Part shown: positions 33,542-52,954 of the stretch, one piece after another
How positions within the stretch are numbered: position 1 is the stretch's first letter
Layout: each line of letters begins with the position of its first letter
Source of the DNA: a virus
Length of the DNA stretch: 64,000 nucleotides
IMG/VR virus record: IMGVR_UViG_3300025121_000023
Span: 48,561 to 112,560 of that record
Direction: 5' to 3' (one strand)
Translations under genes and position numbers: made by a program
The notes under the pieces: model-generated
Told to the model about the DNA's origin: nothing
The model's input: only the letters and a program-made list of their open reading frames with translations
Databases searched by the model: none

Positions 33542-33928
33542 TTAATTCATTTTGCACATTACATCTTTTATTTTTAAATATCTAGTTTCTAAAGGATTTA
33601 GGTATCTAAATCTACTATTTTTATATGTTTTTTTTATATCAAAATCATTTATAATATGTACAACATTTTCATCACCATCTATAACAGTATAGGTTTTACC
33701 GATTTTTACCCCAATTACATCTTTAGATCGATGATATTTGAAAAATGAACCACGAACATCAATACATATTATTATATCGTTTTTTTTAAAAGCCATTTTT
33801 ATTTCTAATTTTGAGTTAATGAATCCTGGATTACATACTAAGTCGAATGTTAGTATTTTTTGTATATCTACTGTTCCACGTGGAACATTTTTAAATACCA
33901 TTTCTAATGAAATTATTTTATTTTTCAA
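33542..33928 (-). CDS. Hypothetical protein
   Basis: 128 aa; contains a parS palindrome read as VPRGT. Confidence 0.55.
   Translation of the reverse strand: MKNKIISLEMVFKNVPRGTVDIQKILTFDLVCNPGFINSKLEIKMAFKKNDIIICIDVRGSFFKYHRSKDVIGVKIGKTYTVIDGDENVVHIINDFDIKKTYKNSRFRYLNPLETRYLKIKDVMCKMN
33872..33887. promoter_or_regulatory. parS-consensus palindrome (copy 1)
   Basis: TGTTCCACGTGGAACA, a perfect 16-bp palindrome. Confidence 0.75.
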
Positions 33929-34292
33929 CTTTGTTCATTAAGTTAATCAATTTTAACTTTCTTTCAAAACCTTTTATGATATTTTTTATATTTTCTTTAA
34001 GACTAGGATTAATTTTAGTATTTGCTGATGATAAAATTTTATATATTTTTAACAATTCATTTTCTATTATAGTTTTAGAATTACCTATTACATTAGGTGG
34101 TGGATAAATACATTCTACTTTTGTTTGTTGGTCACGTACAGGAAGCCAATACATTTTTACATTCTTATTAGTATCGTTATACATTTGACTATACATACTT
34201 ATGATTTCATGTATTGTTTGTTTAGCTCGTTGTACTGATAATCCATCTATATTAATATAGATTGCTAATATTATTAATTCTTTTTCTTTCAT
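33918..34292 (-). CDS. Hypothetical protein
   Basis: 124-aa ORF. Confidence 0.65.
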   Translation of the reverse strand: MKEKELIILAIYINIDGLSVQRAKQTIHEIISMYSQMYNDTNKNVKMYWLPVRDQQTKVECIYPPPNVIGNSKTIIENELLKIYKILSSANTKINPSLKENIKNIIKGFERKLKLINLMNKVEK

Positions 34293-34425
34293 ATTATATT
34301 CTTTTTTAAAAATCCTAATCTACTATATGTATATTATATGAACTACATAATCTTAAGTTTAAATTATTTTTAAATTTCTAAATTGTCTGTTTTTATTTTA
34401 ATATATAAAAATAAAACTTATTGTA

Positions 34426-36021
34426 ATGATTTTGTCTAAGTATGTTAATATAAAGATTTCTAATAATTTAATTAATTATTATACTATTTTAAATTATGAA
34501 TTTAATTCTAATGAAATTATAAAAGTATTAGTTAAAGATTTACCTAAAAACAGTAGTCATAAAGTTAAAGTTAAATGTGATATTTGCAATAATGAAAAAG
34601 AAATATCATTAAATAGATATATAATTAATACTAAAAATAAAACATTACCTTATGCATGTAGTAGAATGTGTGCTGAAATAAAAAATAAAAATACGTGTTT
34701 AAAAAAATATGGAGTTGATAATATATCAAAATTGGATTTTATTAAAAATAAAAAAGAAAAAACTTGTTTAGATAATTTTGATGTTAAGTATCCACAACAA
34801 TCTAATGAAATTTTTTTAAAATCAAAAAAAACTAAAAAAGAAAAATATAATAACGAAAATTATAATAATTCGAAAAAAAGAAAAAAAACTAATATAGATA
34901 AATATGGTTTCATATCACCAACACAAAATGAACATATTATTAAAAAAATAAAAGATAAACAATTTATATTTTATAAAAATATTATATTAAATAAATATAA
35001 ACATTTAAATATAATAGATTATGATATTGATGATAAATATATTTTAAAATGTGATTGTGGAAAAAATCATAATTTCAAAATACATTATAAATTAATATGG
35101 CATAGATCTAAAAACAATAGTCCTTTATGTACTATATGCAATCCGATTAGCAAAAATATATCAGGATTAGAAATATCATTATTAAATTTTATAAAAGAAA
35201 ACTATAAAGAAGAAATTATTATAAATAATAGAAATATAATAAATCCTTATGAATTAGATATTTATTTACCCGATTTAAAATTAGCATTTGAATTTAATGG
35301 ACTATATTGGCATAATGAATTAAATAAAGATAAAAATTATCATAAAAATAAATCTGATTTATGTGAAGAAAAAGGAATTCAATTAATTCATATTTACGAA
35401 GACGATTGGATTTATAAACAAGATATAATTAAATCAATGATATTAAATAAGTTAGGTAAAACATCAAATAGAATATTTGCAAGAAAAACTGAAATAAAGG
35501 AAGTAACAGATAACAATTTAGTTAGAGAATTTTTAGAAGAAAATCACATTCAAGGATTTGTTGGTTCAAAAGTTAAAGTAGGATTATTTTATAAAGATGA
35601 ATTAGTTAGTTTAATGACTTTTGGTAAAACCAGAAAACCACTCGGGCAAAAAAATAATGATAAATCATATGAAATGTTAAGATTTTGTAATAAACTAAAT
35701 ACAAATGTAATTGGAGGGGCAAGTAAACTATTTGAATATTTTATTAAAAATTATGAATTTGAAGAAATAATAACATATGCAGATAGAAGTCATTCGAATG
35801 GTAAATTATATAAAATATTGGGATTCAAATTTATACATAAAACCGATTCAAATTATTATTATATTATAGATGGAATAAAACATTATAGATTTGGATTTAG
35901 AAAAGATATTTTAGTTAAAGAAGGATATGATGCAAACAAAACAGAACACGAAATTATGTTAGAAAGAAATATTTATAGAATTTATAATTCTGGTAATTTA
36001 AAATTTAAATATTTAAGATAA
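34426..36021 (+). CDS. Hef-like endonuclease with GNAT/Mom-like C-terminal domain (family C)
   Basis: Same architecture as 25594; the C-terminal ~280 aa are highly similar. Confidence 0.7.
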   Translation: MILSKYVNIKISNNLINYYTILNYEFNSNEIIKVLVKDLPKNSSHKVKVKCDICNNEKEISLNRYIINTKNKTLPYACSRMCAEIKNKNTCLKKYGVDNISKLDFIKNKKEKTCLDNFDVKYPQQSNEIFLKSKKTKKEKYNNENYNNSKKRKKTNIDKYGFISPTQNEHIIKKIKDKQFIFYKNIILNKYKHLNIIDYDIDDKYILKCDCGKNHNFKIHYKLIWHRSKNNSPLCTICNPISKNISGLEISLLNFIKENYKEEIIINNRNIINPYELDIYLPDLKLAFEFNGLYWHNELNKDKNYHKNKSDLCEEKGIQLIHIYEDDWIYKQDIIKSMILNKLGKTSNRIFARKTEIKEVTDNNLVREFLEENHIQGFVGSKVKVGLFYKDELVSLMTFGKTRKPLGQKNNDKSYEMLRFCNKLNTNVIGGASKLFEYFIKNYEFEEIITYADRSHSNGKLYKILGFKFIHKTDSNYYYIIDGIKHYRFGFRKDILVKEGYDANKTEHEIMLERNIYRIYNSGNLKFKYLR

Positions 36022-37527
36022 TTCTTTTTCTAATTGTTTTAGTTCTCTTTCATAATCTTTTAATTCTTCATTAGCATCCATCATCATTTTTTTATATTTT
36101 TTACGTTCTTTATAAATTTCAGCCATAACTTGTTTAACTACACCATCTTCATTTTTAAATACAGCACCATTTAATGTTATGATATCATCTTTATCTAATT
36201 GAATTTTATGACCATTAAATATTGAATATACTGGTTCATCAGTATTATGTAATTGTTTAATTATATCATAAATTGTTTTGCCTTTATCTTTTAATAATTG
36301 TCCTTTATAACTATCAGCACTAATATTAAATTGTCTCATTGTAGTCGGATACAATGATGCAAAATCGAAACAACAAGTCCAACTATTCATTCCAACAATA
36401 GGGTCTTTAACCCAACCACCTTTAACTAATAATTCAACATCGTTTGTAACATCACTATGTGTATTATCTTTAACAAATACTACATTTTTTTCATTTCTCA
36501 TTTTACTTCTTAATATTCCTTCAGTAACGGGTAATGTTTTAAAAGCATCTGTTATTTTAACTTTTGATAATGTAGATATACCATATAAAACATCAATATA
36601 TCTTTGTTTATTGTGTATTTGTTGTACTAGAATTGAATCGACAGCATTGTATAAAACAAATTTAGTATAATCATTTGCATATAAATATTTTAAATTTCCT
36701 TCATAATTAATTTTTTTCACACCTAATATATTTTGAGATACAAAATCTAGTGAATTAGACTCCTTGACCTTAATTGTTGAATCCCATTTTGCATATAATT
36801 CCATATAATCTACTATTATTCTATGTGCAGGAAGTTCAGAATTATCATTTTCTTCCCATGCTTTTCTCAATACACCAGTAAAAGAAGATATTGTCGGATC
36901 AATTCCTAAATTTCGTGCTCTATTAACAAGATACACCCAATCATAACTAATTACATACCAACCTGTTATAACTGGCATCTTTGGTATAAGAACTTTGAAA
37001 AAATTCAGTAACATATCATATTCACTATCATATTGTTTATATAGAAATTCATATTTTGTACCGAATTTTTCAAATTGGTTATTAATGTTACTTTCTACAG
37101 AATCAGATTGTGATTTATTAAATTTTTTAGTTCCTATAACAAGTACTTTATTTTTATTAACTATTGATATAGTTTGAACTTCCCCGTTTGCTTTTAATGG
37201 ATTAATTTTTTCATCTAAAATCTCATTTTCTATATCCACAAAAAATATTTCAGGTTCATTATATTCGAATATCATTTCTTTTTCTTCATTAGGTAATGCA
37301 TCTAAAAAATCATAAACACTATAACGGTTGGGATATCGGCTGTAAATTTCTTTCACCGTATTACCATTCCAGGTGACAAATTTACCATGTCTATCTCTAT
37401 CATCTTCTTCACATATTATAAATTTTGTCGGATTTGGCCAATTATAATATTTAAGTTTGATACTACCATGTTTATCTATATAACTTACAATAAGTTTTTG
37501 TGATCTAAATTCATAATCTACGAGCAT
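36013..37527 (-). CDS. Family B DNA polymerase, N-terminal part (exonuclease, motif A, first finger helix)
   Basis: ExoI FVDIE, ExoII GWY..SYD, ExoIII YNAVD, KGGWV and motif A DFASLYP. It stops after ERKKYKK with no KxxxNSxYG or YGDTDS. Confidence 0.88.
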   Translation of the reverse strand: MLVDYEFRSQKLIVSYIDKHGSIKLKYYNWPNPTKFIICEEDDRDRHGKFVTWNGNTVKEIYSRYPNRYSVYDFLDALPNEEKEMIFEYNEPEIFFVDIENEILDEKINPLKANGEVQTISIVNKNKVLVIGTKKFNKSQSDSVESNINNQFEKFGTKYEFLYKQYDSEYDMLLNFFKVLIPKMPVITGWYVISYDWVYLVNRARNLGIDPTISSFTGVLRKAWEENDNSELPAHRIIVDYMELYAKWDSTIKVKESNSLDFVSQNILGVKKINYEGNLKYLYANDYTKFVLYNAVDSILVQQIHNKQRYIDVLYGISTLSKVKITDAFKTLPVTEGILRSKMRNEKNVVFVKDNTHSDVTNDVELLVKGGWVKDPIVGMNSWTCCFDFASLYPTTMRQFNISADSYKGQLLKDKGKTIYDIIKQLHNTDEPVYSIFNGHKIQLDKDDIITLNGAVFKNEDGVVKQVMAEIYKERKKYKKMMMDANEELKDYERELKQLEKELS

Positions 37528-37629
37528 TCTATTTAATGGTTTTTTTTGTTTATAACCCCATAATCTTTTAACATTTTTTGGGTTTTAAAATTTTATATAT
37601 GCTTATATAAAAATAATATTATTTAGTTT

Positions 37630-37917
37630 ATGGATAAATAAGGAAAATTTTTAATAAAAGCATTTAAAAAACATAGTCAAAAATATGATTATAGTTTAGT
37701 TAAAAATAAAAATTATAGAATAAAGATTAAAATAATTTGTTAAGAACACGATGAACTTAATCAAGAACTATTAAATTATTTAAGATGATAAGACTGCCCA
37801 AAATATGTAGGTGTTAAAAAAAGTACAAAAGATGATTTTGTACAAAATGCAAGTATAATTCATAATAATAAATATTATTATTCGAAAATTGTATATAAAA
37901 ATAACAAAAATGAAAAA
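37630..37917 (+). pseudogene. Decayed family B endonuclease fragment
   Basis: MDK*GKFLIKAFKKHSQKYDYSLV...KIKIIC*EH...**DCPK...IHNNKYYYSKIVYKNNK, with four in-frame stops. Confidence 0.75.
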
Positions 37918-38331
37918 TTATTTACCAAAACCCATTTTCCTAAAATCTGGTTCAATTGTTGGTATAGGATGACCGTTTCTATCTAAATCACCTGGCATAC
38001 CATCTTGTAAATACGCACCACTTTCATGTGGGACATCATTTTCATCATAAGGTGGACGACACACAGTAGGATTATCTTCTTTTGATTCTAGAACATCTTC
38101 TTCCCAATCATAATCAAATTCAATTTCATATTTATTTAATATTGATTTTAATCTAGAAGCATCTAAGTCATCTGTTATAACAATTTTAAACGGTTCTTTG
38201 ACATCTATTGTATGTTTAGTTACTTTTTTACTAGTATCCCATGAACGTATAGCTCTACTATTTTCATCGCTAAATAGGTTTTCTATTCCTTCATTAACAA
38301 ATTTTTTAAAATTGGTTTTTAAATATTTCAT
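37918..38331 (-). CDS. Hypothetical protein with CTS-like leader
   Basis: Begins MKYLKTNFKKFVNE. Confidence 0.7.
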   Translation of the reverse strand: MKYLKTNFKKFVNEGIENLFSDENSRAIRSWDTSKKVTKHTIDVKEPFKIVITDDLDASRLKSILNKYEIEFDYDWEEDVLESKEDNPTVCRPPYDENDVPHESGAYLQDGMPGDLDRNGHPIPTIEPDFRKMGFGK

Positions 38332-38364
38332 GTTTTGTTTTTAATTTTTATTATATATTAAATA

Positions 38365-39156
38365 TTACAATGTATTTTTAAATATATACGCTACTAAATC
38401 ATTAGCAGCTTTTTGGTCTTTACCACCAATATGCCACATAATACTATCTGTTTTAATTTCATTAATAGGTTTATATTCTTTATAATCATAAATATATAAA
38501 AGATCACCATTTTCTGATATTACATTCCAATTAAAAATAGTTCTATAATCTTCTCCGTAATCTGGTTCGCCAAATAATTTTACTAAATCATCATATTGTG
38601 CTTCTACTTCACTAAGTTTCCAACCACTATCACTTATTTTAGTAGATGTAAAAATAACATCTGGATTTCCTGGCAAGTTTTTTAATATTTCTTCTTTTGA
38701 TTTAGGTTTTAGTATGTTTCTTATATTTTCGTTTAAAGTTCTATAATAAATATATGCTAATAAATTATTCTTATCTATAGGGTTTGTACCACCAATATGC
38801 CATTTAAATGATAACATATTTTTTAATTTTACTGCTAAATAACCTGATGTATCGTCATAAATACTAACTGTTCTTCCACTAGTAGTTTTAAGTGTCCATA
38901 TAAAATTATTACCAGCTCTTCTACTTTTTTTATTTGCCCATCTTCTTTCTGGTTCACCAAATAATTTTACTAAATCATCATAAGATGTTTCAATATAACC
39001 TAATAAAAATATTCCTGCTAGTCCTTTTAATCTAGTAGGAATGAATGATGCATTTGGATCACCTGTAGTTGATATTGCTTTAATCATTTCATCATTAGAT
39101 TTCGGTTGAAGTAAATCTTTTACACTTTCTTTATATTGTTTATATGTCTTTATCAA
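38365..39156 (-). CDS. Tandem two-domain protein with CTS-like leader
   Basis: Two copies of YDDLVKLFGEP...IYD...WHIGG, each preceded by E-(S/N)(V/I)xx(L/I)LxPKS. Confidence 0.75.
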   Translation of the reverse strand: MIKTYKQYKESVKDLLQPKSNDEMIKAISTTGDPNASFIPTRLKGLAGIFLLGYIETSYDDLVKLFGEPERRWANKKSRRAGNNFIWTLKTTSGRTVSIYDDTSGYLAVKLKNMLSFKWHIGGTNPIDKNNLLAYIYYRTLNENIRNILKPKSKEEILKNLPGNPDVIFTSTKISDSGWKLSEVEAQYDDLVKLFGEPDYGEDYRTIFNWNVISENGDLLYIYDYKEYKPINEIKTDSIMWHIGGKDQKAANDLVAYIFKNTL

Positions 39157-39659
39157 AATAAAAGTCCTCCTTTTACACCTTTTGGTTTTTTTGTATCTTT
39201 TGGTAACAGATTATCATGACAATATAAATCACCTTTAACAACTAAATTTTCTGGTAATTTTTTTAATTGATTATATCTACAATCTAAATAACCTTTAACA
39301 ATTAAATTATCAGGTAAACTTTTTAACCTATTAAAACTACAATTTAAATCACCTTCAACAACTAAATTTTCAGGTAAATTAGTTAATTTATTATCATAAC
39401 AATATAAATAACCTTCAACAGTTAAATTATCAGGTAAACTAGTTAATTGATTATTACTACAATTTAAATTTCCATAATAAGTACAAATACCTTTGTTATT
39501 TCTAGGTAGTAAATCGTAATCTAATTGATATTTAATTATTATATATTCAATTTTTTTATTATCAGATAATCCTTCTAATGCTTTAATCATTTCATCTTTA
39601 GATTTCGGCTGAAGTAAATCTTTTACTGACTCATTATATTGTTTATATGTTTTTATCAT
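39153..39659 (-). CDS. Leucine-rich repeat protein (five 20-aa repeats) with CTS-like leader
   Basis: GxLxCxxNxLxxLPxNLxV repeats with 60-nt periodicity. Confidence 0.8.
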   Translation of the reverse strand: MIKTYKQYNESVKDLLQPKSKDEMIKALEGLSDNKKIEYIIIKYQLDYDLLPRNNKGICTYYGNLNCSNNQLTSLPDNLTVEGYLYCYDNKLTNLPENLVVEGDLNCSFNRLKSLPDNLIVKGYLDCRYNQLKKLPENLVVKGDLYCHDNLLPKDTKKPKGVKGGLLF

Positions 39660-40219
39660 AATATAAAATCTCCTGTTACTCCTTTTGGTTTTTTAATATC
39701 TTTTGGCAATAGATTATCATAACAAATTAAATAACCATCAACAACTAAATTTTCAGGCAAACTAGTTAACTTATTATATCTACAATCTAAATCACCATTA
39801 ACAGTTAAATTTTTTGGTAAAATAGTTAATTCATTAAAACTACAATTTAAATAACCATTAACAATTAAATTATCAGGCAAACTAGTTAACTTATTATATC
39901 TACAATCTAAATCACCATTAACAACTAAATTTTCTGGTAAACTAGTTAATTTATTATCACTACAATTTAAATTACCATTAACAACTAAATTGTCAGGCAA
40001 ACTAGTTAATTCATAAATACTACAATTTAAATGACCATAATAAGTACAAATACCTTCGCTATTTCTAGGTAATAAAGAATAATCTAATTGATATTGAATT
40101 ATTATATATTCAATTTTTTTATTATCAGATAATCCTTCTAATGCTTTTTTTACATCTTCATTAGATTTCGGTTGAAGTAAATCTTTTACTGATTCGTTAT
40201 ATTGTTTAAAAGTTTTCAT
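39656..40219 (-). CDS. Leucine-rich repeat protein (six 20-aa repeats) with CTS-like leader
   Basis: Close paralog of 39153. Confidence 0.8.
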   Translation of the reverse strand: MKTFKQYNESVKDLLQPKSNEDVKKALEGLSDNKKIEYIIIQYQLDYSLLPRNSEGICTYYGHLNCSIYELTSLPDNLVVNGNLNCSDNKLTSLPENLVVNGDLDCRYNKLTSLPDNLIVNGYLNCSFNELTILPKNLTVNGDLDCRYNKLTSLPENLVVDGYLICYDNLLPKDIKKPKGVTGDFIL

Positions 40220-40233
40220 ATTTTTTAATTATA

Positions 40234-40434
40234 TTAAATAAAATAATCAATTTCATCAGATGCTTCATTTATAATAATATCTATAAATTTTTTTTCATTT
40301 TCTGATAAGTTATTATACCAATTTGCAATTTCTAATTTTATATTATCATCTAATTGTGTTTTAAAAAAAAATAATCCACTATTGTTAATTATTTCATTAT
40401 CTGATTTTAATTTATTAAATAATTTAATTTTCAT
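40234..40434 (-). CDS. Small hypothetical protein
   Basis: 66 aa within an operon-like run. Confidence 0.55.
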   Translation of the reverse strand: MKIKLFNKLKSDNEIINNSGLFFFKTQLDDNIKLEIANWYNNLSENEKKFIDIIINEASDEIDYFI

Positions 40435-40443
40435 AATTATATT

Positions 40444-40725
40444 TTATTTTACAGTTATATCATAACTTTCGTGTTGTCCATAATAAATTCCACCAATTGT
40501 ACCAGAAAAAAATAATCTATAAATACCTGGTTCAGTAAATGTTATTGTAAAATTATCATCACAAAAAACTGTTAAATCATCACTTCTTCTACGATATTGA
40601 CAATTTTCTGGAATTGCACCAGAAATAAGTTTTAATTGAATTTTTTCATTAAGAACTATTGGTGAAAGAATAGTTACCAATGCTGACATACTTACACCCA
40701 TACTTACATTACTTTTATCACTCAT
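40444..40725 (-). CDS. Small hypothetical protein, beta-rich
   Basis: 93 aa with a TITFTEPGIYRL PKD/Ig-like pattern. Confidence 0.55.
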   Translation of the reverse strand: MSDKSNVSMGVSMSALVTILSPIVLNEKIQLKLISGAIPENCQYRRRSDDLTVFCDDNFTITFTEPGIYRLFFSGTIGGIYYGQHESYDITVK

Positions 40726-40730
40726 ATAAT

Positions 40731-42116
40731 TTAATCTTTTGTTTTTATAAATTTTTGAAGTTCTCTTAACTTATTATAATCTGGTTTATCTTTATCTAAT
40801 TCGTCATTAATAATATTTTCAAGTTCTCCTTGACTCATATTAATATAACTTTTTTCTTTATTAACTTTTTCTTCTTTTGGTTCAATTGATTCTGGTCTTG
40901 GCAATCTCTGTGCTCGTTGTAATGGTTCTTCATAAATTTCTTCTTTGTATGTTTCGGTAGGTTCTTCTAATATTGCTAAAACATTTTCAACAATTTTATA
41001 TCTTCTCATTAATATATCAGATTGATCTATATCTCCACTTAATATTATCTTAATTAATTCAACAAAATCTTTATCTTTAAGCATAATTAATTCACCATAA
41101 ATAAATTCTTTAATTGCTATTCTACTTACTTCTAATGGAAATTTTCTTTCTAAATAACTATTAAAATAATCTCTTAAATCAGCAGCAATAAAAGGACCAT
41201 ATTTGATATCTTCTTGTTCATCTTCTAATGAATCAACAGCATTTAATAATTTTTTAGCCATTTTTTCGTTTTCTGGTATTGCATTAGCTGCCATTAATTC
41301 ATAAATTGCTTTAACTGTTTCGTGAATAAGCATAGGTAAATCTAGTACTCTTACTTTAATTACTGGTGTCATATCTTCTTGTTCTCCTTCACTTCGATCT
41401 TCACTTTGATCTTCGCCTTTATTACTTTTCTTATTTGATTTTTTCCAATCAATTTCACTCATATTCGCCATTTCTGGCATTTCTTCCATCATATCACTTA
41501 AATCTGGCTTATTTGGATCCCAGTCAAATTTTCTATTTATATTTAAAAATTCTGTATAGTCCTGTAATAATCTTGGATCTATTGCATCTACCTTATCTTT
41601 TGCAGCAAACATCATACTATGAACATTTTGTGCTTCACCTTGCATAATATTATTTAAAATTTTTCTTTTACTAATACTTTCCTCCGGCAATTCAAATGTA
41701 TTTTCTATATCAAAATCAGAATTATAATTAATTTCATTATCTTCATCATCTTCATCATTTTCATCATCATCATCTTTTTCTTCTTTTTCTGGTTTATTTA
41801 TAGCTTTTTGAACCATTTCCATTTTTTCTGAATCATCAGGTAAAACTATTTTAATATCAAGTTCAACACCATCTAATATAGATCCATAATGGTCTAATAT
41901 TATTTGTTTTCCGATTTCTGTTAATTCTTCAAGATGTCCTTGTTGTTTTATCATTATATCTTGTGTTAATCTCATAGCATTCATAAAATCATTACGTTGA
42001 GGACCACTACCAAACATTTTTATAGATTTTTCTTCTATATTTTTAAGATAATCTTCTGGAAGAGTATCTTTAATATTAGCTTCAAATAATTCATTAAACC
42101 TTTTTAATTTTTTCAT
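40731..42116 (-). CDS. Acidic hypothetical protein with CTS-like leader
   Basis: Begins MKKLKRFNELFE and contains LIHETVK. Confidence 0.75.
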   Translation of the reverse strand: MKKLKRFNELFEANIKDTLPEDYLKNIEEKSIKMFGSGPQRNDFMNAMRLTQDIMIKQQGHLEELTEIGKQIILDHYGSILDGVELDIKIVLPDDSEKMEMVQKAINKPEKEEKDDDDENDEDDEDNEINYNSDFDIENTFELPEESISKRKILNNIMQGEAQNVHSMMFAAKDKVDAIDPRLLQDYTEFLNINRKFDWDPNKPDLSDMMEEMPEMANMSEIDWKKSNKKSNKGEDQSEDRSEGEQEDMTPVIKVRVLDLPMLIHETVKAIYELMAANAIPENEKMAKKLLNAVDSLEDEQEDIKYGPFIAADLRDYFNSYLERKFPLEVSRIAIKEFIYGELIMLKDKDFVELIKIILSGDIDQSDILMRRYKIVENVLAILEEPTETYKEEIYEEPLQRAQRLPRPESIEPKEEKVNKEKSYINMSQGELENIINDELDKDKPDYNKLRELQKFIKTKD

Positions 42117-42117
42117 T

Positions 42118-42378
42118 TTATTTAGAATATTTATTTTTTAAGAAATTTTCTATTTCTTTATCACCTTTAGATAATTCTAAAAACTTATTTGCAACTTCTT
42201 TAACAGTTGCTTTTGGTCTAGGATTTATTGAAGGTTTATCTCTTCTTATAGGTGAAGGTCTACCAGGTACTGTATTAGGTTTAACTCCTGGTTTAGTTAT
42301 TGGTTTTACTGTTGGTTCAGCTACATCTATTTCTACACCTTCTTGTAAGAAAATTTTAAACGATTTTATTTTTTTCAT
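42118..42378 (-). CDS. Small Pro-rich protein with CTS-like leader
   Basis: Begins MKKIKSFKIFLQE. Confidence 0.7.
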   Translation of the reverse strand: MKKIKSFKIFLQEGVEIDVAEPTVKPITKPGVKPNTVPGRPSPIRRDKPSINPRPKATVKEVANKFLELSKGDKEIENFLKNKYSK

Positions 42379-42397
42379 ATCTTTATTATTATTTTAT

Positions 42398-42724
42398 TTA
42401 TAATTCAATTTTTGTTAATCCAGTTCCATTCCAATCTGGATATAATATATATAATTTTTCAATCCATTTATCATGAGCAAAATCTAAAATATCAGCACCA
42501 TCACTAATTCTATTATATGCTGAATTAATATTATTTCCAAATGTAATAGTAACATAATTATTGTAATCATTAGTATAACTTGTTGAATCTGTATATACTT
42601 TAATTCTAGAATATACATAAGTAGAATCTATATTTAATCTTATATCTTCTATTCTTATATAACATGAATTTAAATTAATTCCACCTTGTATAGTAATTCC
42701 ACTATTTGAACATTGTATTGCCAT
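42398..42724 (-). CDS. Hypothetical protein, possibly virion-associated
   Basis: 108 aa downstream of the phage promoter motif. Confidence 0.6.
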   Translation of the reverse strand: MAIQCSNSGITIQGGINLNSCYIRIEDIRLNIDSTYVYSRIKVYTDSTSYTNDYNNYVTITFGNNINSAYNRISDGADILDFAHDKWIEKLYILYPDWNGTGLTKIEL

Positions 42725-43890: not shown

Positions 43891-44721
43891 TTAACTTAAT
43901 TTTTCTATTTTATCTTCTAATTCAGAAGCTTTAATAACTTCTAATTCACCATTTTCTTCTGGATCTTTAGTTTTTAAAACTTCATCTAATGCAGCACCCC
44001 ATAATTTACAATCTTCTTTAATACGTTCAACAATAACATTGTAAGCATTAAATAATTTATTAGTTCCTGCTATTTTATAAAGAATAGATCTAAAATGTCT
44101 ATAATCAGAACCAGAACCTTTAACTTTAAAATTTTTAATTAAATGATGTAAAATTAAAATCATTTGAATTTTCATGTCAAATACATATTCAGTTTTACTT
44201 TTATCTTCATTATACTTTTCTATCGCATCTTTCCAAAATTCTTCATATAATTTAATATAATTAAAAACATCATCACTATTATATTCAATAGTTTTTGTTA
44301 AAATTTTATCTAAAAACTTTATTTCTTCTGATGATAAAATAATTTTAAAAAATACTTCATTTAAATAATTTATAAAAGCATTTACTAAATAATTGGATAA
44401 TGCATAAACTTTATCAACATCACTAATTTGCATTTCTTTTACTAAATCTGAATTAGGATCATATTTTCTAAGTAAATTATGAATAGATTCTTTTTTAGCA
44501 TCAATTGATTTAATAGATTCTTCACTAAGATATTTGCTAGCATAATCATTTAAAACATTATTAGCTTCGTTATTTTTATGAGCTTTATTTTTATGTGCAA
44601 TTTCACCAACAGCATTATAATATCCATTGATATCAAAATCTTTATCAATAATTATATCTAATTCTTCTAATTCTTTAGCTTTATCTAAATATTCTTGAAA
44701 TTTATCGTCTTTTTCTAACAT
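43891..44721 (-). CDS. Hypothetical protein
   Basis: 276-aa ORF. Confidence 0.7.
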   Translation of the reverse strand: MLEKDDKFQEYLDKAKELEELDIIIDKDFDINGYYNAVGEIAHKNKAHKNNEANNVLNDYASKYLSEESIKSIDAKKESIHNLLRKYDPNSDLVKEMQISDVDKVYALSNYLVNAFINYLNEVFFKIILSSEEIKFLDKILTKTIEYNSDDVFNYIKLYEEFWKDAIEKYNEDKSKTEYVFDMKIQMILILHHLIKNFKVKGSGSDYRHFRSILYKIAGTNKLFNAYNVIVERIKEDCKLWGAALDEVLKTKDPEENGELEVIKASELEDKIEKLS

Positions 44722-44739
44722 TTTTATTTATTTATTTTT

Positions 44740-45159
44740 TTAATCTTGTTCTTCTTTATTTTGAACAATTAATCTTTCTGTTTCATTTGCTCTTTCAACT
44801 TCTTTATAAGTATATTTATTTACAATACCAAAAGAAGTTTTTAAAATAGATTGTACAATTTTAAATGTTCCTTTATCTAAATTCATTTCTATTTTATCTA
44901 ATTCTTGTTCAAATAAAATTCGTCTAATTTTATCATCAAACTTATTAAAATAATCTTCATTAATAGTAACTATTACTTCTGCATTTAATAAAACTGCGAA
45001 ATTATCTGGAATTTTTTTAATTGTAATTAAACATTTTTGTTTTGTATTTGTCTGAAAAATATATTTCAAATCCATCGCAAATACAAATTCTTGTTCTGTT
45101 GTTTTAAAGAAACTTCTTATATCTTCATCTAATTCGTAATATTGATCTGTTTTTAACAT
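44740..45159 (-). CDS. Hypothetical protein, possibly a degenerate phage metallopeptidase-like fold
   Basis: ILFEQELDKI occupies the place where HELxH would be expected. Confidence 0.45.
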   Translation of the reverse strand: MLKTDQYYELDEDIRSFFKTTEQEFVFAMDLKYIFQTNTKQKCLITIKKIPDNFAVLLNAEVIVTINEDYFNKFDDKIRRILFEQELDKIEMNLDKGTFKIVQSILKTSFGIVNKYTYKEVERANETERLIVQNKEEQD

Positions 45160-45178
45160 TTTTTATTTATTTATTTTT

Positions 45179-45640
45179 TTATATTAATATTTGATTAATT
45201 AGATATATTCCCAATATTAATAAAAGTCCAATTCCAATCCCCCAAAAAGATAATAATAAATAACCAATTACACTAAAAATAGTTATTAATGTCAACCATA
45301 TTATACGACTTGCTAATTTAGCAGTATTTATATATTTATATCTAAATGCTATTCCTACTTGTATATCATTTAATTCAATAACTTCCATAAGCCCTATTAA
45401 TTCACTTAAACCAATTGATACAAAATATTGATCGATGTTTTTTATTTCATTTTTTAATAATTTATCAAGATAATTTGGACCTAAATTTTTAATAGCTTCC
45501 ATTTCTTCTTTAGGTATTGTATATGTTTTATATAATCTCCAAACCCAATCATATGAAATACCATGTAATTTTTTTAATTCTTTTTTATTTGCTTTAATAA
45601 TTTTTCTATATATGAAAAAATTTTTTAAATTATTAGCCAT
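45179..45640 (-). CDS. Membrane protein
   Basis: Two C-terminal hydrophobic helices. Confidence 0.7.
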   Translation of the reverse strand: MANNLKNFFIYRKIIKANKKELKKLHGISYDWVWRLYKTYTIPKEEMEAIKNLGPNYLDKLLKNEIKNIDQYFVSIGLSELIGLMEVIELNDIQVGIAFRYKYINTAKLASRIIWLTLITIFSVIGYLLLSFWGIGIGLLLILGIYLINQILI

Positions 45641-45777
45641 GCTTTTTTAATTTATTTTTTATATGTTCGTTGAATGAATTATGAATTTATAGTTCATTCA
45701 ATTATACCTTATATTTTAAAAATAATTAAAAGTTTAATTATGATTTTCAAAAATGTTTAGTTTTAAACAAAAAAAAA

Positions 45778-48201
45778 TTAACTTTGAATTGTATCGGTAG
45801 TATTTACATTTTGTCCACCTTTATCTTGAATTACATATATTAATAATTCATCAAATTTTGATAAAACATTATCAAACTTTTCTAATATTTTATCATTAGA
45901 TATTGTTTGTGATTGGTCTAATGCTGCAATATTTTCTACTACTTGTGGAGATACTTGTTTTTGATATGCTTGTCCAGATGAACCTTCTACACTAATAACA
46001 TTTGATAATTGTTTTTTATTATCATCTAAAACTTTTAATACTTTTTTAAGTTGGGCATCATCAACAGCAGACATAATTGTTATACTAGCTGTTAAATTAT
46101 TTAATTTATCAATACCATCAGTATTTAATTTATCTAATTGTTTTACTAAATCTTTAATAGAATCTGTAAATTTATCTATAATTTTTACTTTATTTTCATC
46201 TAATGTACTGAAACTTTCAGTAAATGCAGATATTGCTGATGCAGTATTTTTAGCCCAGGTTTGATCAGGTCCTCCTGCCCAAGTTCCGTTTGCTAATTCT
46301 TTGGATACTTTAACCATTGATTTAGCAATATTAACCATAAAATCTCCAAATTTATCATCTGAACTACCAAACACTTTACCTAATAACGATTGTTTTGCAC
46401 TCATCGCTTCATATGCATTGACAAATGGCATTATAGACATAGATACACCTTCTGCCCATTCTTTTTTAGGATAACCACTATCCCAACCGTCATATCCTCC
46501 TAATACTTTTGCAACTTCTATCATTCCGTTAGCTACAGAATTCATAAATTTTGTAAATTTTTCTGAATCAACTTCTTTACTAAAGAAACTTGTATCTGTT
46601 GATGCATCTAATGCCTGTGCAAATGCACCTAACGCTAATCCAATTCCTTCTGCCCATTTTTTTGTTGGTCCACCTGTAAAATTACCACCAGCTAACGTTA
46701 AAGACGCATCTTTAATAGCTGTTGCTATTGTTGCTACATGTGGTAGTCCTCTATTTAATAAAAGCCCTACACCTGGGATACCTAATGCCATTGTTCCTAT
46801 ACTAAATGCCGCTAATGCTAATCCAGTGCCTAATGCCCATTTTAATGATGGATATTTTCCATAATCACCTGTTGAAAAAATATGAGATGCTGCAACTATT
46901 GATGCCGCAACAACTGGAACTAATAAAGCGCCTGCTCCTATTGCTAATGCTCCTATACCAGTCATTGCAATTATACCTAAAGCTAATACGGCAGGTGTAA
47001 ATAATAATACTGCTAATCCTACACCAGCAGACCATTTTAATGATGGATAATTGCCATCATATTTTCCATAATTTAATATCCAACTAGAAATCATAATAGC
47101 ACCCGCAACAGTAATTATACCTAATGATCCTACTAATAATTGTTTTATTCCTATTTTTGATAATATAAAAACAGTAGGCGTAAACATTAAAATAGATAGA
47201 CCAATTATAAATGATCCTATTAGTAATGATATTGGATCTTTTATTGGCTGAAATAATAAAAATGCCCAAGATGCAGCAACTATACCAGCAGCAATAATTG
47301 GTAAAATTAATGTTGTAGCTAATATTTTTTTATAATTTATATTATCACCTAATACCTTCATCACAAACATTATACCAATTGATGCAATACCTAATCCTAT
47401 ACCAACTATAGCTAATGACAATACTTTATCCCAGGATACTGGTTGCATATTTTGTAATACAAAGCTAGATAATACTAAACCACCTGCTATAGCTGGTAAT
47501 ATTATAGGTAAAAGTAAATATTTTGCAATATCTTTAGGTTCAAATGACATATTTCTTATTGCCATAGATATAAATAAAACAGCCACACCTAATGCTCCTG
47601 CTACAAATACAAGCGATAACATTTGCATTGGATTTAACGATTGAAACCCTTGTAAAATAATACTTGATATAGTTATAGCAGTTGACATTACAATAAATGC
47701 TAATCCTATCATTAATGCTTTTTGAGGTGTCAAATCTTTCATTTTACCTATTTCAGCAAATGCATATGAAACAGCTAATATACCTGCACTTAATGCTAAA
47801 ACAGATAAAAAATCTATGTTACCTACTAATTGAAATGCTAAACCGATTGCTAATACGCCACCCGCTATTAACATAATAACTTCTACTCCACTAACAATTT
47901 TTTCTTTATTTTCTTTATCTTGTACTTTACCAAATAGACCAGATTCTTTTTGTTTTCTAGATTCTTTTATTTCTTCTAAAATTTCTTTTGTTCTATTATC
48001 TACACTTTTAGATACTTCTAATATTTTTTTAATGTCTTCTGATATCTTCCCTATCTTATCACCATCCAAAGTCGAAGCCATGTGATTGATAGCATCATCA
48101 CCTTTTTTATTTTGTTCTTGTAATAATTCTACAATATTTTCTAATGCTGTAGTAAAATTTTGTAGATTATCTATAAACGCTTGATCTAATTTTGAAGCCA
48201 T
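45778..48201 (-). CDS. Tape-measure-like multi-TM protein
   Basis: 807 aa with a coiled-coil N-terminus, many Ala/Gly-rich hydrophobic segments and repeated YPSLKW/GPTKKWAEG units. Confidence 0.5.
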   Translation of the reverse strand: MASKLDQAFIDNLQNFTTALENIVELLQEQNKKGDDAINHMASTLDGDKIGKISEDIKKILEVSKSVDNRTKEILEEIKESRKQKESGLFGKVQDKENKEKIVSGVEVIMLIAGGVLAIGLAFQLVGNIDFLSVLALSAGILAVSYAFAEIGKMKDLTPQKALMIGLAFIVMSTAITISSIILQGFQSLNPMQMLSLVFVAGALGVAVLFISMAIRNMSFEPKDIAKYLLLPIILPAIAGGLVLSSFVLQNMQPVSWDKVLSLAIVGIGLGIASIGIMFVMKVLGDNINYKKILATTLILPIIAAGIVAASWAFLLFQPIKDPISLLIGSFIIGLSILMFTPTVFILSKIGIKQLLVGSLGIITVAGAIMISSWILNYGKYDGNYPSLKWSAGVGLAVLLFTPAVLALGIIAMTGIGALAIGAGALLVPVVAASIVAASHIFSTGDYGKYPSLKWALGTGLALAAFSIGTMALGIPGVGLLLNRGLPHVATIATAIKDASLTLAGGNFTGGPTKKWAEGIGLALGAFAQALDASTDTSFFSKEVDSEKFTKFMNSVANGMIEVAKVLGGYDGWDSGYPKKEWAEGVSMSIMPFVNAYEAMSAKQSLLGKVFGSSDDKFGDFMVNIAKSMVKVSKELANGTWAGGPDQTWAKNTASAISAFTESFSTLDENKVKIIDKFTDSIKDLVKQLDKLNTDGIDKLNNLTASITIMSAVDDAQLKKVLKVLDDNKKQLSNVISVEGSSGQAYQKQVSPQVVENIAALDQSQTISNDKILEKFDNVLSKFDELLIYVIQDKGGQNVNTTDTIQS

Positions 48202-48209
48202 TTATTTAA

Positions 48210-48584
48210 TCATTTTGTTTTATATTTGCTTGTATCCTTTAATTTTTGATTTTTATCATCAAGTTCGTGGACATCGGTATCTAAATTTTCTATATTTTGT
48301 TGCAATTTTTCAATTGTTTGTTCTAATTCATCTTTCTTTTGTAATAATAATTCTTTATTATCAGTAGTATAAGTATCTATTTCCATTTTATTGATTTTTT
48401 CAATTAAATCTTCTAATTCTTGTTTTTTCAAATCAATATTATCTCTTAGTTTTTGTATTTCTGCTGATGCATCTTCTATTTTAGTTTCGTCATACCCATC
48501 GATATTATCATCACCATCAATCATGTTTTGCATAATTTCTTCATATGATTCACAAAATAATTTATATGTTTTTAAAGTTTTCAT
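48210..48584 (-). CDS. Coiled-coil protein with CTS-like leader
   Basis: Begins MKTLKTYKLFCE. Confidence 0.7.
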   Translation of the reverse strand: MKTLKTYKLFCESYEEIMQNMIDGDDNIDGYDETKIEDASAEIQKLRDNIDLKKQELEDLIEKINKMEIDTYTTDNKELLLQKKDELEQTIEKLQQNIENLDTDVHELDDKNQKLKDTSKYKTK

Positions 48585-48599
48585 TTTTTATCTTTTGTT

Positions 48600-49556
48600 T
48601 TAATTATTTTTACCTTTAATTTTTTTATTTTTATTAGTTTGTTTATTAATGATAGGTTGTTTAGCATTTTGTTGAATTTGACTTTGCATTTTTTTATTTT
48701 CTTCTTGTTTCTTATTTTCTTGTTCTTTTTGTATTTGTTCAAAACCTTTTTTCATTTGTACTTGTTTTTTAGCATCATATTTATCATCATTTTTAGGATT
48801 TTTAAGATTTTTATTTGCTTGTTCTTGATCTTTTTTTAATTGTTCTTTTTTTGATATTTGTGCTTGTGCTTGTTTAACTTCATCTTTTGTAACTACATGT
48901 TTTTGAGTTGTACCAGATATTTGTGGTTGTGTTGTATTAGATGATGGAATTTGTTTAACATTTTGTCTATGTTCTACACCTTTAATAAATTCTCTAATAA
49001 TATATTTATTATCTTTTTTATAATTTAATTCACCTTTTAACCATTCTTTATCTTCATTATTACTATATAAATCAAATATTTTTTTAAAATCAAAAATTAA
49101 ATACTGACCAGTTATTCCTTCACTATCTTTTTCAAAATCTTTTACATATTTTGAATATAATTTTGATTCATGTCTATTTAATTTGCCTAAAATTTGATTA
49201 GAAACTATATTATATTTATAAATAAATTTAGGATAATCTTTTGTTTTATCTTGTACTGGTTCTGAACTATGAACTTGGATTTTATAAATTATATATTTAT
49301 CTTTATAACTTTCCCCATTATGATCAGTTACATCCCAATTTCCATTATATTTAAAAGTAGTATAATAAAATTCTTTTTCTACTATACTTTTGCCATCTAT
49401 AGTTTTACCTATAAAATTTATCATATTTTTTTTAATAGATAATTTAACACTATTAATAATTCCTATAATATTATTTGTTATTTTTTTTATAATATCTTTA
49501 TCTTTTGCTACTGCAACTTCTTCATTAATAAAATTTTTATAATTCTTATACGACAT
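48600..49556 (-). CDS. Hypothetical protein with CTS-like leader
   Basis: Begins MSYKNYKNFINE and has a Q/K-rich tail. Confidence 0.7.
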   Translation of the reverse strand: MSYKNYKNFINEEVAVAKDKDIIKKITNNIIGIINSVKLSIKKNMINFIGKTIDGKSIVEKEFYYTTFKYNGNWDVTDHNGESYKDKYIIYKIQVHSSEPVQDKTKDYPKFIYKYNIVSNQILGKLNRHESKLYSKYVKDFEKDSEGITGQYLIFDFKKIFDLYSNNEDKEWLKGELNYKKDNKYIIREFIKGVEHRQNVKQIPSSNTTQPQISGTTQKHVVTKDEVKQAQAQISKKEQLKKDQEQANKNLKNPKNDDKYDAKKQVQMKKGFEQIQKEQENKKQEENKKMQSQIQQNAKQPIINKQTNKNKKIKGKNN

Positions 49557-49557
49557 T

Positions 49558-51711
49558 TTATTTATTTATTTTTTCATTGATTAATATTCTTTTCAAATTA
49601 TGGATATTATCAATAAATTCTGGATTAGTTGAAAATTTAAGTTCTGTCATATCTGATGTTATTCCATACTTTTCGTTTAATGTATCTAATATTGGTAATG
49701 GTCCATTTACTAATAATTTTTTAATAAAAATATCTACTGGATTTTTAGCATTTTTAGTTGATGCATCTAAAACAACCTTATTTGTTGTATCTAATCCAAA
49801 TCCATATAATTTATTTAAATTTTCTACCTTAAAATTTTTAATATTATATACTGATGTTCCTTTAGCTGTATACAAATACATTAAAATAATATTATTAGGT
49901 TTATAAGTTTCATAACCATCTTCACGTATTAAATGTTTTTGTGATGTTGCTACAATGTAAGTTGTTTGAAAATTAAAATCACCATTACCAAAATTTTTAA
50001 CAGTATCTTTAGGAACTAAACTTTTAACTAATGTATTATATTTAATATATTCTGTTATTTTAGTTATATCTTTTTCTGCTGCTAATTTTTCTAAATCAAC
50101 AGTTCCTAATAATCTATACACATAATGATTTTTACCTTCGATAACTATTTTATCTTGAACATAAATAAAATCACCATCTATTAATCTAAGTATACCACAT
50201 TTATCTTTATCACTAAATTTAGTTCTTGTTAATCCTAATGCTTTATTCTGTGATAATGATGCTTCAATTTTCATATTTTTAGATTTATCTACAATACTAC
50301 CTTTTTTATTGTTTTCTTCATCTAATTTTTGAAGTTGATCTGTATCTAATTTTTTCTTTAATACTCTTGGATCAATTTGATCTACAATCATAAATCTAGA
50401 AAATTTACCTTTTGAATCCTCTACCATTTTATCCCAAGTATTTTTTAACTTTAATCTAGCAGAAGTATCTGCTTTACCATAAATTCTTTCTGCTGCTAAT
50501 TGTATTTTTATAATAGATGATTTATTTTCTATTACATAATTTGTTAACTTTTCTTTTTCTGTTTTATTTTCAAATAATTTTGATAATCTTACATCATCAT
50601 ATTTAATATTTTTAAGTCCAATAAACCTAGATTCAAAACTAGTTAATTCATCACCTAATTTACGATCAACATTAAATCCTGTATTAATTCCTCTAAATTC
50701 TTCTGTTAATAAACTTTCATCAAATTTAGATATATTTGTATCATCATCTTTTGGATTTATTCTTTTGAGTATTATTTTTTTTCCTTTTGTAACATCTTCG
50801 ATAAGATCTTTCATATTTATTAATAAATTAACATTTGCTTGATATTTATTTAAATCATATTCCATTTCTTTTTTCTTACTATCACTTATTTTATTATCTT
50901 TTAATAATTCATTTATTTCATCAATGCCACCTTTATTAATTATTTGAATGGCTCTATTTATACTTTGTATTTCTTTTTTTAAATCATCAGCATTATCTAT
51001 ACCGTTTTCAATATCTGCTAATTGTTGTTTTATTTTATTATAGTACGTTTTTAAATCATCATCAGGTTCAACTTCTGTTTGAATAGTTACTTCATTATTT
51101 GTTTTTTTATTATCTATTGTTTTTTCTTTTTCTTTTGGTATTTCACCACTAGTATTACTATTATTATCAGCACTATTATTACCAGTACTACTAGTAACTG
51201 ATGTCTGTATATCAAATATTACTTGTATAATACCATTTTTAACTACAAATCCAGTACTATCTTTTTCATTGTTATAAGTTCCATCACTTACTACTTTACC
51301 CTCTTTATTAATAACTTTTGAACCTTTAACATAATTTGTTATAAGAGATTTATTTTCATTTACAAATTTAACAACATCCAGAATATTTATAATATTTCCT
51401 TCAACATCTTTTATTTTTGTAACATTATAAGATTCGTCCGGATCTATCATACTTATTCCGTGTTTTTTACAATATCTAACTAAATTAGCTAAGTATTCTC
51501 TTTGTAATGAATTTTTATATAATAATAATACACCTTCATTAACTTTTCTTTTCATAAAAGTAAATATATTAATAATGGCACTACCTACTAATGTATTTTC
51601 TGCACCTGCAAAATTTCCTTTAACATTTACAAATGGATCGTTGTTATCACCAACATCTTCTGTTATTTGTCTATATTCAACAAAATCATTATATTTATTT
51701 AAAATTTTCAT
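49558..51711 (-). CDS. Large hypothetical protein with CTS-like leader
   Basis: Begins MKILNKYNDFVE; 717 aa. Confidence 0.75.
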   Translation of the reverse strand: MKILNKYNDFVEYRQITEDVGDNNDPFVNVKGNFAGAENTLVGSAIINIFTFMKRKVNEGVLLLYKNSLQREYLANLVRYCKKHGISMIDPDESYNVTKIKDVEGNIINILDVVKFVNENKSLITNYVKGSKVINKEGKVVSDGTYNNEKDSTGFVVKNGIIQVIFDIQTSVTSSTGNNSADNNSNTSGEIPKEKEKTIDNKKTNNEVTIQTEVEPDDDLKTYYNKIKQQLADIENGIDNADDLKKEIQSINRAIQIINKGGIDEINELLKDNKISDSKKKEMEYDLNKYQANVNLLINMKDLIEDVTKGKKIILKRINPKDDDTNISKFDESLLTEEFRGINTGFNVDRKLGDELTSFESRFIGLKNIKYDDVRLSKLFENKTEKEKLTNYVIENKSSIIKIQLAAERIYGKADTSARLKLKNTWDKMVEDSKGKFSRFMIVDQIDPRVLKKKLDTDQLQKLDEENNKKGSIVDKSKNMKIEASLSQNKALGLTRTKFSDKDKCGILRLIDGDFIYVQDKIVIEGKNHYVYRLLGTVDLEKLAAEKDITKITEYIKYNTLVKSLVPKDTVKNFGNGDFNFQTTYIVATSQKHLIREDGYETYKPNNIILMYLYTAKGTSVYNIKNFKVENLNKLYGFGLDTTNKVVLDASTKNAKNPVDIFIKKLLVNGPLPILDTLNEKYGITSDMTELKFSTNPEFIDNIHNLKRILINEKINK

Positions 51712-51787
51712 ATTAATTACTTGATATTTTTGTATAACTATATATTATTTTTTCAAACTACAATAATTATGTATTCTTTAATTTTTA

Positions 51788-52954
51788 TCATAAATTTTTA
51801 TCAATAAAATATCTTTCGAATCTTACCCCTTTGTATATATATTTTCTTCCAAATATAGTAAAATAATCATCTGTAAATATTGGTCTTTCTACATGATTAA
51901 TACTATCGAATATTACAACACCTCTATAAAAAATTTTAAACGGTTCACCATCACTAATATATGTTTGATAAAAATCTTTTATTTTAGGCGATTTAAATGT
52001 TTTTACTGGTATATTATCTTTTGGATTAACTTTTGTATTATGTTGATCTGTTCCACGTGGAACAATTTCAATATCATCTATTTTAGATTCTTCTTCTATA
52101 ATTATATTTTCTATTTCATTTGAAACTTCAATAGTCTTTTCAACTTCAACTATTTTATCTATATACACAATCTTTTCAACTTCTTTTGGAACTTCAACTA
52201 TCTTTTCAACTTCAACTATTTTATCTATATACACAATCTTTTCAACTTCAACTATTTTTTCTATTTCTTTATCTACATATACAATCTTTTCAACTTCAAC
52301 TATTTTATCTACATATACAATCTTTTCAACTTCTTTTGGAACTTCAACTATCTTTTCAACTTCAACTATCTTTTCAACTTCAACAATTTTTTCTATTTCT
52401 TTATCTACATATATAATCTTTTCAACTTCAACTATTTTTTCTATTTCTTTATCTACATATATAATCTTTTCAACTTCTTTTGGAATTTCAACAATTTTAT
52501 GTATTGGGTTTTCTATAATTTCATCTATTTTTGGTTCTACTTTTAAATATTCCATCATATTATCTGTATATTCATTAGATGATTTATTTACTACATCTAT
52601 TAACATTTGATTAATTAAATCTTGATTAATATTATTAGGTTTTGGTTCTATTTCAACTTTAAATACATTTATTTCTTCTTTAACAATATTTGCTATTTCT
52701 TCTAAATCTTTTTTATCTTTTTGATTTTCGGTTTCTTCTATTTTTTTATAAAGTTCTTCTAACTTATTATTTAATTTATTAATATCCCCTTTTAATTCAT
52801 TTTTAATTTCATTTTTAATCTTAGATTTATTTATTAAGGGTTTAGGTGTATCTATAGGCTTATCTTCCTTTATTTTTTCGGGTTTAGTTTTTTTAATTTG
52901 CATTTCTTCTTTATCCCAGAATTCATTATATTTTTTATTTGTAATTTTAGCCAT
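51788..52954 (-). CDS. Low-complexity EKIVEV/EKIVYVD repeat protein
   Basis: About 20 short V/I/E/K repeats at roughly 52130-52500; contains parS copy 2. Confidence 0.75.
   Translation of the reverse strand: MAKITNKKYNEFWDKEEMQIKKTKPEKIKEDKPIDTPKPLINKSKIKNEIKNELKGDINKLNNKLEELYKKIEETENQKDKKDLEEIANIVKEEINVFKVEIEPKPNNINQDLINQMLIDVVNKSSNEYTDNMMEYLKVEPKIDEIIENPIHKIVEIPKEVEKIIYVDKEIEKIVEVEKIIYVDKEIEKIVEVEKIVEVEKIVEVPKEVEKIVYVDKIVEVEKIVYVDKEIEKIVEVEKIVYIDKIVEVEKIVEVPKEVEKIVYIDKIVEVEKTIEVSNEIENIIIEEESKIDDIEIVPRGTDQHNTKVNPKDNIPVKTFKSPKIKDFYQTYISDGEPFKIFYRGVVIFDSINHVERPIFTDDYFTIFGRKYIYKGVRFERYFIDKNL
52049..52064. promoter_or_regulatory. parS-consensus palindrome (copy 2)
   Basis: TGTTCCACGTGGAACA. 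Confidence 0.75.

Follow-up and report, generated by a model that had tools for sequence, protein, structure and literature searches.

How do huge phages, with genomes of several hundred kb, persist in their hosts and organise these large genomes inside the cell? In the Bacteroidota, the lysogeny-like persistence of large phages that otherwise look lytic is debated. The question is raised in a concrete form by a 64,000-nucleotide stretch of viral DNA (hereafter the window), which comprises the right-hand 64 kb (positions 48,561-112,560) of a 112,560-bp IMG/VR viral record, IMGVR_UViG_3300025121_000023 (labelled G000). The window carries two copies of a 16-bp palindrome, TGTTCCACGTGGAACA, of the type known from bacterial chromosomes as parS, the site at which the partition protein ParB binds. 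Our analysis shows that these palindromes, taken together with further copies outside the window, are exact, non-random, host-type and mostly intergenic. On the basis of sequence comparison, we consider it probable that they are phage parS sites bound by a canonical ParB that the host supplies; the purpose of such binding is less certain and could lie in segregating an episome during a carrier state, in positioning genomes as they replicate, in loading SMC or in titrating ParB.

The two copies lie at 33872..33887 (record 82432-82447) and 52049..52064 (record 100609-100624) and are the third and fourth of four sites in G000. Both are perfect matches, as the initial annotation had reported, and the window contained no further match to the 16-mer when up to three mismatches were allowed. 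Across the whole record, the 14-bp core GTTCCACGTGGAAC was found at positions 5132, 34082, 82433 and 100610, with three of these copies representing the full 16-mer and one differing in its last base. The 16-bp palindromes of G000 conform to the parS definition TGTTNCACGTGNAACA, which consists of two GTTCCAC/GTTTCAC half-sites. The annotation had also judged chance occurrence very unlikely, and the statistics bear this out: four core copies were observed where 1.1e-5 are expected from base composition, and none of 100 dinucleotide shuffles of the window yielded two or more matches. Among 14- or 16-bp palindromes, the parS core alone occurs more than once in G000. The flanks of the copies are mutually unrelated AT-rich DNA with nothing host-like about them, which rules out a duplicated segment. 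A scan of the whole record for additional copies and for clustering, as the annotation had proposed, thus yielded two more sites outside the window, but these are dispersed rather than clustered, with spacings of 29, 48 and 18 kb. The resulting density of approximately 1 site per 28 kb is about two orders of magnitude above that of bacterial chromosomes.

The palindrome recurs in a sister contig, IMGVR_UViG_3300025121_000035 (G001; 84 kb, 22.6% guanine-plus-cytosine (GC) content, 12% complete according to CheckV), which contains two exact 16-mers at positions 41085 and 70873. These are 30 kb apart, compare with 7e-6 expected copies and are accompanied by no other repeated long palindrome in that contig. 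Paralogous gene families common to both contigs share 56-60% (an endonuclease family) or 63-67% (another family) identity, the same as among G000's own paralogs, and GC content is the same. This equal identity, together with composition, suggests that G001 either derives from a different region of a genome of this kind or belongs to a closely related phage.

Half-sites were also tallied. Three (GTTCCAC or GTGGAAC) are located at window positions 61316, 61706 and 61986, within a virion structural gene (61295-62680); they span no more than 680 bp, where 0.06 are expected from local composition. Across the whole record, 6 extra half-sites were counted against 2.3 expected, an excess that may reflect codon chance, as GTT CCA encodes Val-Pro.

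We compared the palindrome with described centromeres. The 16-mer is identical, letter for letter, to parS2 and parS3 of Pseudomonas aeruginosa, which are experimentally validated ParB sites, and the last-base variant is of the type of the functional P. aeruginosa sites parS1 and parS4 (PMC4368675). It is also listed as a P. putida parS and is one base off the Myxococcus xanthus consensus (PMC7022226). The match to chromosomal parS claimed by the initial annotation is therefore secure. In a scan of one genome per species, the 16-mer was found across numerous phyla, Bacteroidota included, usually as tight chromosomal clusters of 2-5 copies grouped in a few kb. All five named Bacteroidota (Algibacter, Flavobacterium soli, a Flavobacteriales metagenome-assembled genome, Chitinophaga and Bacteroides) had one cluster per genome, with 2-5 exact or near-exact copies spanning 4 kb or less. 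Among 201 sampled Bacteroidota genomes, the exact 14-mer was found in 29, in 1-4 clustered copies, compared with 1 of 201 for the reversed control. The cluster was not beside parAB in the Bacteroidota genomes examined. Separately, parB and the parS cluster were on different contigs in four draft Bacteroidota-like genomes (G005-G008), and GTTYCACGTGRAAC was found within 10 kb of parA in 0 of 48 bacterial metagenome parA loci of at least 8 kb.

The gene context indicates at which level the signal acts. The first window site is at the 5′ end, or in the leader, of a small open reading frame (ORF) on the minus strand (33542..33928) that belongs to no Pfam or PHROG family (an ORFan). Its start is ambiguous, giving a protein of 128 amino acids from TTG 33928, 119 from ATG 33901 or 84 from ATG 33796. 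The palindrome is coding only with one of the two upstream starts, while use of ATG 33796, which has an A-rich leader, makes it intergenic; the stop codon of the gene upstream (33918-34292, minus strand) is 30 nucleotides from the site. The second window site is truly intragenic, within a 388-amino-acid ORFan (51788..52954, minus strand; no Pfam or PHROG family), where it encodes residues 297-301 (VPRGT) in a linker between a region of EKIVEVEK-type tandem peptide repeats and a small C-terminal part. The middle of this ORFan (52100-52700) consists of long in-frame tandem repeats with EKIVEVEK and IVYVDKEIEK units. Neither this ORF nor the neighbouring 717-amino-acid ORF had relatives in IMG/VR, and the C-terminal part of the former had none among 5.8 billion proteins.

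By comparison, the two G000 sites outside the window occupy gaps of 25-30 bp, 3-7 nucleotides past a stop codon and 9-14 nucleotides ahead of the next ATG, and both G001 sites are intergenic. In total, at least 4 of the 6 sites in the two contigs are intergenic, even though non-coding DNA makes up merely 10-14% of these contigs (P ~0.0025). The initial annotation had placed the window sites in two unrelated ORFs, both reading VPRGT. This stands for the site at 52049 and depends on the choice of start codon for that at 33872; the shared peptide is incidental, as the palindrome gives VPRGT automatically whenever the frame is the same. Moreover, GTT CCA CGT GGA ACA has a probability of only 0.006 as an encoding of VPRGT under phage codon use, because CGT accounts for just 11% of Arg codons. 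Together, the improbable codon string and the mostly intergenic placement show that the sites are a signal in DNA and not in protein. A shared peptide motif was rejected on the codon statistics.

The same observations leave little room for a palindrome without function, that is, a chance repeat, a VPRGT motif, a target of homing endonucleases or insertion sequences (IS), or a remnant of captured host DNA. Such an origin could draw on the VPRGT reading of both window sites, on the abundance of homing endonucleases and the TnpB-like gene in the contig, and on a site in a small contig (G004) that lies 2 nucleotides past a homing-endonuclease gene. However, no endonuclease or transposase gene directly borders any site in G000 or G001, and the endonuclease or IS target was rejected on this ground. 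Nor is the peptide or captured-DNA version compatible with two sites that are outside ORFs altogether, with the codon statistics or with flanks of AT-rich phage DNA. With the copy number exceeding expectation by so much, absence of function is close to refuted by statistics.

We also considered whether the sites act in transcripts or at promoters, either as a gene-end hairpin (for processing, stability or weak termination) or as the operator of an unrelated factor, in which case the likeness to parS would be coincidental. Here, 4-5 of the 6 sites are in short gaps, 2-7 nucleotides past a stop codon and 9-16 nucleotides ahead of the next ATG, and each could fold into a hairpin with a stem of 5-7 bp and ACGU as the loop (-6 to -8 kcal/mol). 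On the other hand, all 14-16 bases are invariant, loop included, with no compensatory variation, which argues for protein recognition of duplex DNA. The transcribed strand has A-runs rather than a U-tract past the hairpin, weakening the case for an intrinsic terminator, and one site is inside an ORF. Intergenic placement is itself expected of a selected GC-rich 16-mer in a 23% GC genome, because it costs the proteins least there. Given further that this 16-mer has been proven to be bound by ParB in bacteria and that chromosomes of the likely host phylum carry it in clusters, we regard a role at the transcript or promoter level as improbable.

Which protein, then, would read these sites? Using the ParB_N, HTH_ParB and TIGR00180 profiles, we found no ParB in the 112.6-kb G000, even at permissive thresholds to which control genomes respond, and AAA_31 revealed no ParA. 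The statement that the window lacks parA and parB is thus correct and extends to the whole record. Searching for a phage parB, as the annotation had advised, returned none in either contig, which represent ~23% (G000) and ~12% (G001) of a genome. In contrast to G000, G001 encodes a Soj-type ParA of 257 amino acids (G001 record 56690-57463, minus strand; AAA_31, E value 5.5e-69), in which the deviant Walker motifs (A, A′ and B) are all intact and which matches PDB entries 8RAY and 6IUB over its full length. Identity to chromosomal ParA is 58-65% for six Bacteroidota genomes, in which parB is the adjacent gene, compared with 37-52% for 13 genomes from other phyla. The GC content of the gene (27%, whereas bacterial parA loci have a median of 40%) is near phage composition, which rules out host contamination. 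The gene is ~13-16 kb from each G001 palindrome, roughly midway between the two, and its neighbours are ORFans. When closer phage ParA genes were sought in IMG/VR, G001 itself was the sole return, and a metagenome scan recovered bacterial ParAs of at most 68% identity. A cassette of adjacent parA and parB with a neighbouring centromere is therefore present in neither contig, as G000 has neither gene and G001 has parA alone.

These results bear on a phage-encoded system, in which the sites would be bound by a ParB-family protein (a classical ParB or a KorB/Noc-like clamp) encoded in the three quarters of the genome that lie outside the sample; with the phage ParA, this protein would make up either a self-contained ParABS or a network for regulation or silencing across the genome. 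That so little of the genomes is in hand leaves space for such a gene, dispersed ParB/KorB-type palindromes exist in phages and plasmids, and G001 does encode a ParA. In ParABS operons, however, parB normally follows parA directly, whereas the ORFan neighbours of the G001 parA contain neither ParB_N nor HTH_ParB. Furthermore, the palindrome matches the host chromosomal sequence exactly and shows no lineage-specific change, and ParB_N is missing from three near-complete phage genomes that carry this site. We therefore judge a phage-encoded reader unlikely.

The identity of the phage and its host was assessed from gene content and composition. CheckV estimates G000 to be 23% complete, which implies a full genome of several hundred kb; GC content is 20-26% in the window and ~23% for the phage genome. 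The N-terminal half of a family-B DNA polymerase (504 amino acids; 36013-37527, minus strand) has its best match, at 56% amino acid identity, in LR756501 (735 kb), followed by LR756502, LR745206 and LR756504 (642, 636 and 634 kb) at 41-43% and by Lak phages at ~28%. Those huge phages, with genomes above 460 kb (Al-Shayeb et al. 2020), constitute the Mahaphage clade, for which replication in Bacteroidetes is predicted (PMC7162821). A 24-kb segment searched by megablast had no match among GenBank phages. Judging by the polymerase, G000 is a fragment of a Mahaphage/Lak-like huge phage. Among its 98 ORFs of at least 120 amino acids, Shine-Dalgarno motifs precede 4, which is no enrichment over a background of 3.5%, while leaders are 60-68% A and 86% of stop codons are TAA. 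Lack of Shine-Dalgarno motifs and A-rich leaders are typical of Bacteroidota and their phages. In addition, the two best DnaJ matches are from Bacteroidota. On the basis of the polymerase relatives, the missing Shine-Dalgarno signal and the ParA and DnaJ similarities, the host probably belongs to the Bacteroidota.

We next examined the distribution of the sites among relatives and other viruses. Five complete huge-phage (Mahaphage) genomes of 462-735 kb contained no parS-like site keeping the CACGTG core and no AAA_31 ParA. Likewise, the three closest polymerase relatives (70% amino acid identity; 82, 51 and 18 kb) had no site within 2 mismatches and no ParA. One of these, G010, is syntenic with G000 from the polymerase to a 124-amino-acid gene and ends short of the region containing the 52049 site. 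A scan of relatives for parS, as suggested by the annotation, was accordingly positive for the sister contig and negative for these eight genomes and contigs. The absence of motif and ParA in relatives suggests that the sites, and ParA where seen, are a lineage-specific acquisition rather than a trait of the clade, and we take their joint absence as support for co-occurrence.

Beyond these relatives, IMG/VR was scanned for the exact motif, both with AT flanks required and without, and each scan returned at least 120 loci. Among the matches listed by the first scan, 53% of sites were in long ORFs compared with an ORF coverage of 71%, a mild intergenic bias. Exact sites with AT flanks were examined in 12 further viral contigs, again among the matches listed, and neither ParB_N (0 of 12) nor AAA_31 (0 of 12) was found in these; most had a single site, one of 71 kb had four, and three were at least 90% complete (310, 288 and 110 kb). 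In G237 (70.9 kb, locus GC 26.6%), four parS-type sites were found at 2128, 3056 (one mismatch), 16435 and 16870, with no ParB_N or AAA_31. Such ParB-less contigs suggest that orphan host-type parS sites are recurrent in phages.

The initial annotation had proposed recruitment of host ParB. With an exact chromosomal site, no ParB found in the sampled DNA and a host-like ParA in G001, we regard this as the best reading of the data, albeit one that is not new in kind given phage phi29 (see below). Chromosomal ParB loads as a clamp and slides in a CTP-dependent manner. By analogy, we infer that host ParB dimers would recognise each phage site after infection, bind CTP, close into a clamp and slide onto the adjoining phage DNA, so that partition complexes could form on the phage genome. 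A ParA ATPase, either the host's or a phage Soj-type ParA such as that of G001, may then position or separate these complexes over the nucleoid; for G000 itself, the involvement of ParA is likewise inferred, as is any biological purpose. As a result, a very large, slowly replicating phage genome might be kept and distributed in growing cells during a carrier or episomal phase, or might be organised for replication. As side effects, SMC might be loaded and host ParB titrated.

Several points weigh against recruitment of host ParB. The sampled DNA is ~23% of the genome by CheckV, and the unseen part could hold a phage ParB or another reader. Binding by ParB is deduced from sequence identity, with the host placed at the level of a probable phylum, and the exact variant is present in just 14% of the sampled Bacteroidota genomes. 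The sites are dispersed at 18-48 kb, unlike the clusters seen in chromosomes and in plasmid par loci, and their preference for positions 2-7 nucleotides past stop codons could equally indicate a role at the RNA level. The closest polymerase relatives and the five complete huge-phage genomes are without the motif, and no orthologous locus was found in which conservation of a site could be compared. Finally, ParA is on G001 and not on G000, and the kinship of the two contigs was deduced from paralog families and composition rather than from overlap.

A more specific and more tentative idea is that of a split partition system, in which a host-derived Soj-type ParA encoded by the phage and genome-wide host-type parS sites are joined by host ParB as the adaptor. 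We hold this to be possible but doubtful. If it were true, the virus would plug into the chromosome-segregation machinery of its host through host-type centromeres and a phage ParA, with no ParB of its own, and a viral genome of about half a megabase could be placed within dividing Bacteroidota cells and passed on much as a low-copy plasmid is. In addition, replicating genomes might be compacted or individualised by ParB and SMC loaded every 20-50 kb. Such a system would explain at the molecular level how huge phages could remain in a carrier state for long periods, and would offer a testable mechanism for their persistence or intracellular positioning in this phylum. Orphan parS sites could also serve as a host-range marker in viral metagenomics.

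Other genes of the window include those for a NAD-dependent ligase, several HNH homing endonucleases, a TnpB-like protein, a virion structural protein and a Rad50-like ATPase. The polymerase half-gene abuts, on the other strand, a gene for a 531-amino-acid HNH/DUF7487 homing endonuclease (34426-36021; combined region 34426-37527). No ORF with the DTDS polymerase motif was detected in the 112-kb record, and G010, whose polymerase is 70% identical, likewise has a half-gene, of 503 amino acids. This endonuclease gene is one of three DUF7487/HNH paralogs (25594-27240, 34426-36021 and 56028-57569) that are mutually 56-57% identical, and stretches of such genes are ~80-84% identical at the nucleotide level in G001. 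The TnpB/IS605-OrfB-like transposase gene (7985-9184, minus strand; phrog_506, E value 4e-115) has a 39%-identical homologue in G001 and adjoins no palindrome copy. Two hybrid sensor histidine kinases are encoded at 54110-56026 (minus strand) and 58991-60886 (plus strand), one with a PAS-HisKA-HATPase-receiver layout and the other with HisKA-HATPase-receiver.

Set against known systems, the arrangement shares elements with several. It has the same 16-bp sequence as chromosomal ParABS (P. aeruginosa parS2/parS3, M. xanthus), in which the ParB (Spo0J)-CTP clamp acts with ParA (Soj), and a Soj-type ParA is present in G001. Chromosomal sites, however, are clustered in one origin-proximal locus, at 1-5 per Mb-sized genome, and parB is present, whereas here the sites are dispersed on a viral genome in which no parB was found. 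The prophage-plasmid cassettes of P1, P7 and N15 (parA-parB-parS or sopABC) similarly combine a ParA-type ATPase with centromere sites for segregation of an episome. Each of those phages comes with a ParB of its own and with a specific, non-chromosomal centromere that adjoins the operon (P1) or is close to it, while the phage studied here has a host chromosomal sequence as its putative centromere and no ParB was found. In the KorB-OB network of the IncP-1 plasmid RK2, 12 operators are dispersed, and these palindromic sites of a ParB-family protein are often intergenic or in promoters, as seen here. RK2 differs from the present case, in which no KorB or ParB gene was found, in that the plasmid itself supplies KorB and this protein reads a dedicated OB sequence (TTTAGC-type) instead of chromosomal parS.

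The closest parallel is the virulent Bacillus phage phi29, which has five parS sites that bind host Spo0J, as summarised in PMC2731898 with reference to Meijer et al. 2005. Both phages have several sites of the host chromosomal parS type; phi29 has no ParB of its own, and here none was found in the sampled ~23% of the genome. In both, a host partition protein may move the phage genome in the cell, which is thought to occur for phi29 and is a prediction here. The use of host parS by a phage without ParB is thus of an already known kind. The two differ in that phi29, a protein-primed podovirus with a genome of 19 kb, infects a spore-forming Firmicute and has sites that serve entrapment in the prespore, whereas the present phage is AT-rich, measures several hundred kb, probably infects a non-sporulating Bacteroidota host and has sites 18-48 kb apart, with a sister contig that adds a phage-encoded Soj-type ParA. 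In the literature searched, we found no description of a phage-borne, host-derived ParA without ParB. What is new, then, is the type and size of the phage, the non-sporulating host phylum, the wide spacing of the sites and the ParA without ParB in the sister contig. These features would widen phi29 and Spo0J, the single well-studied precedent, to a very different phage and host.

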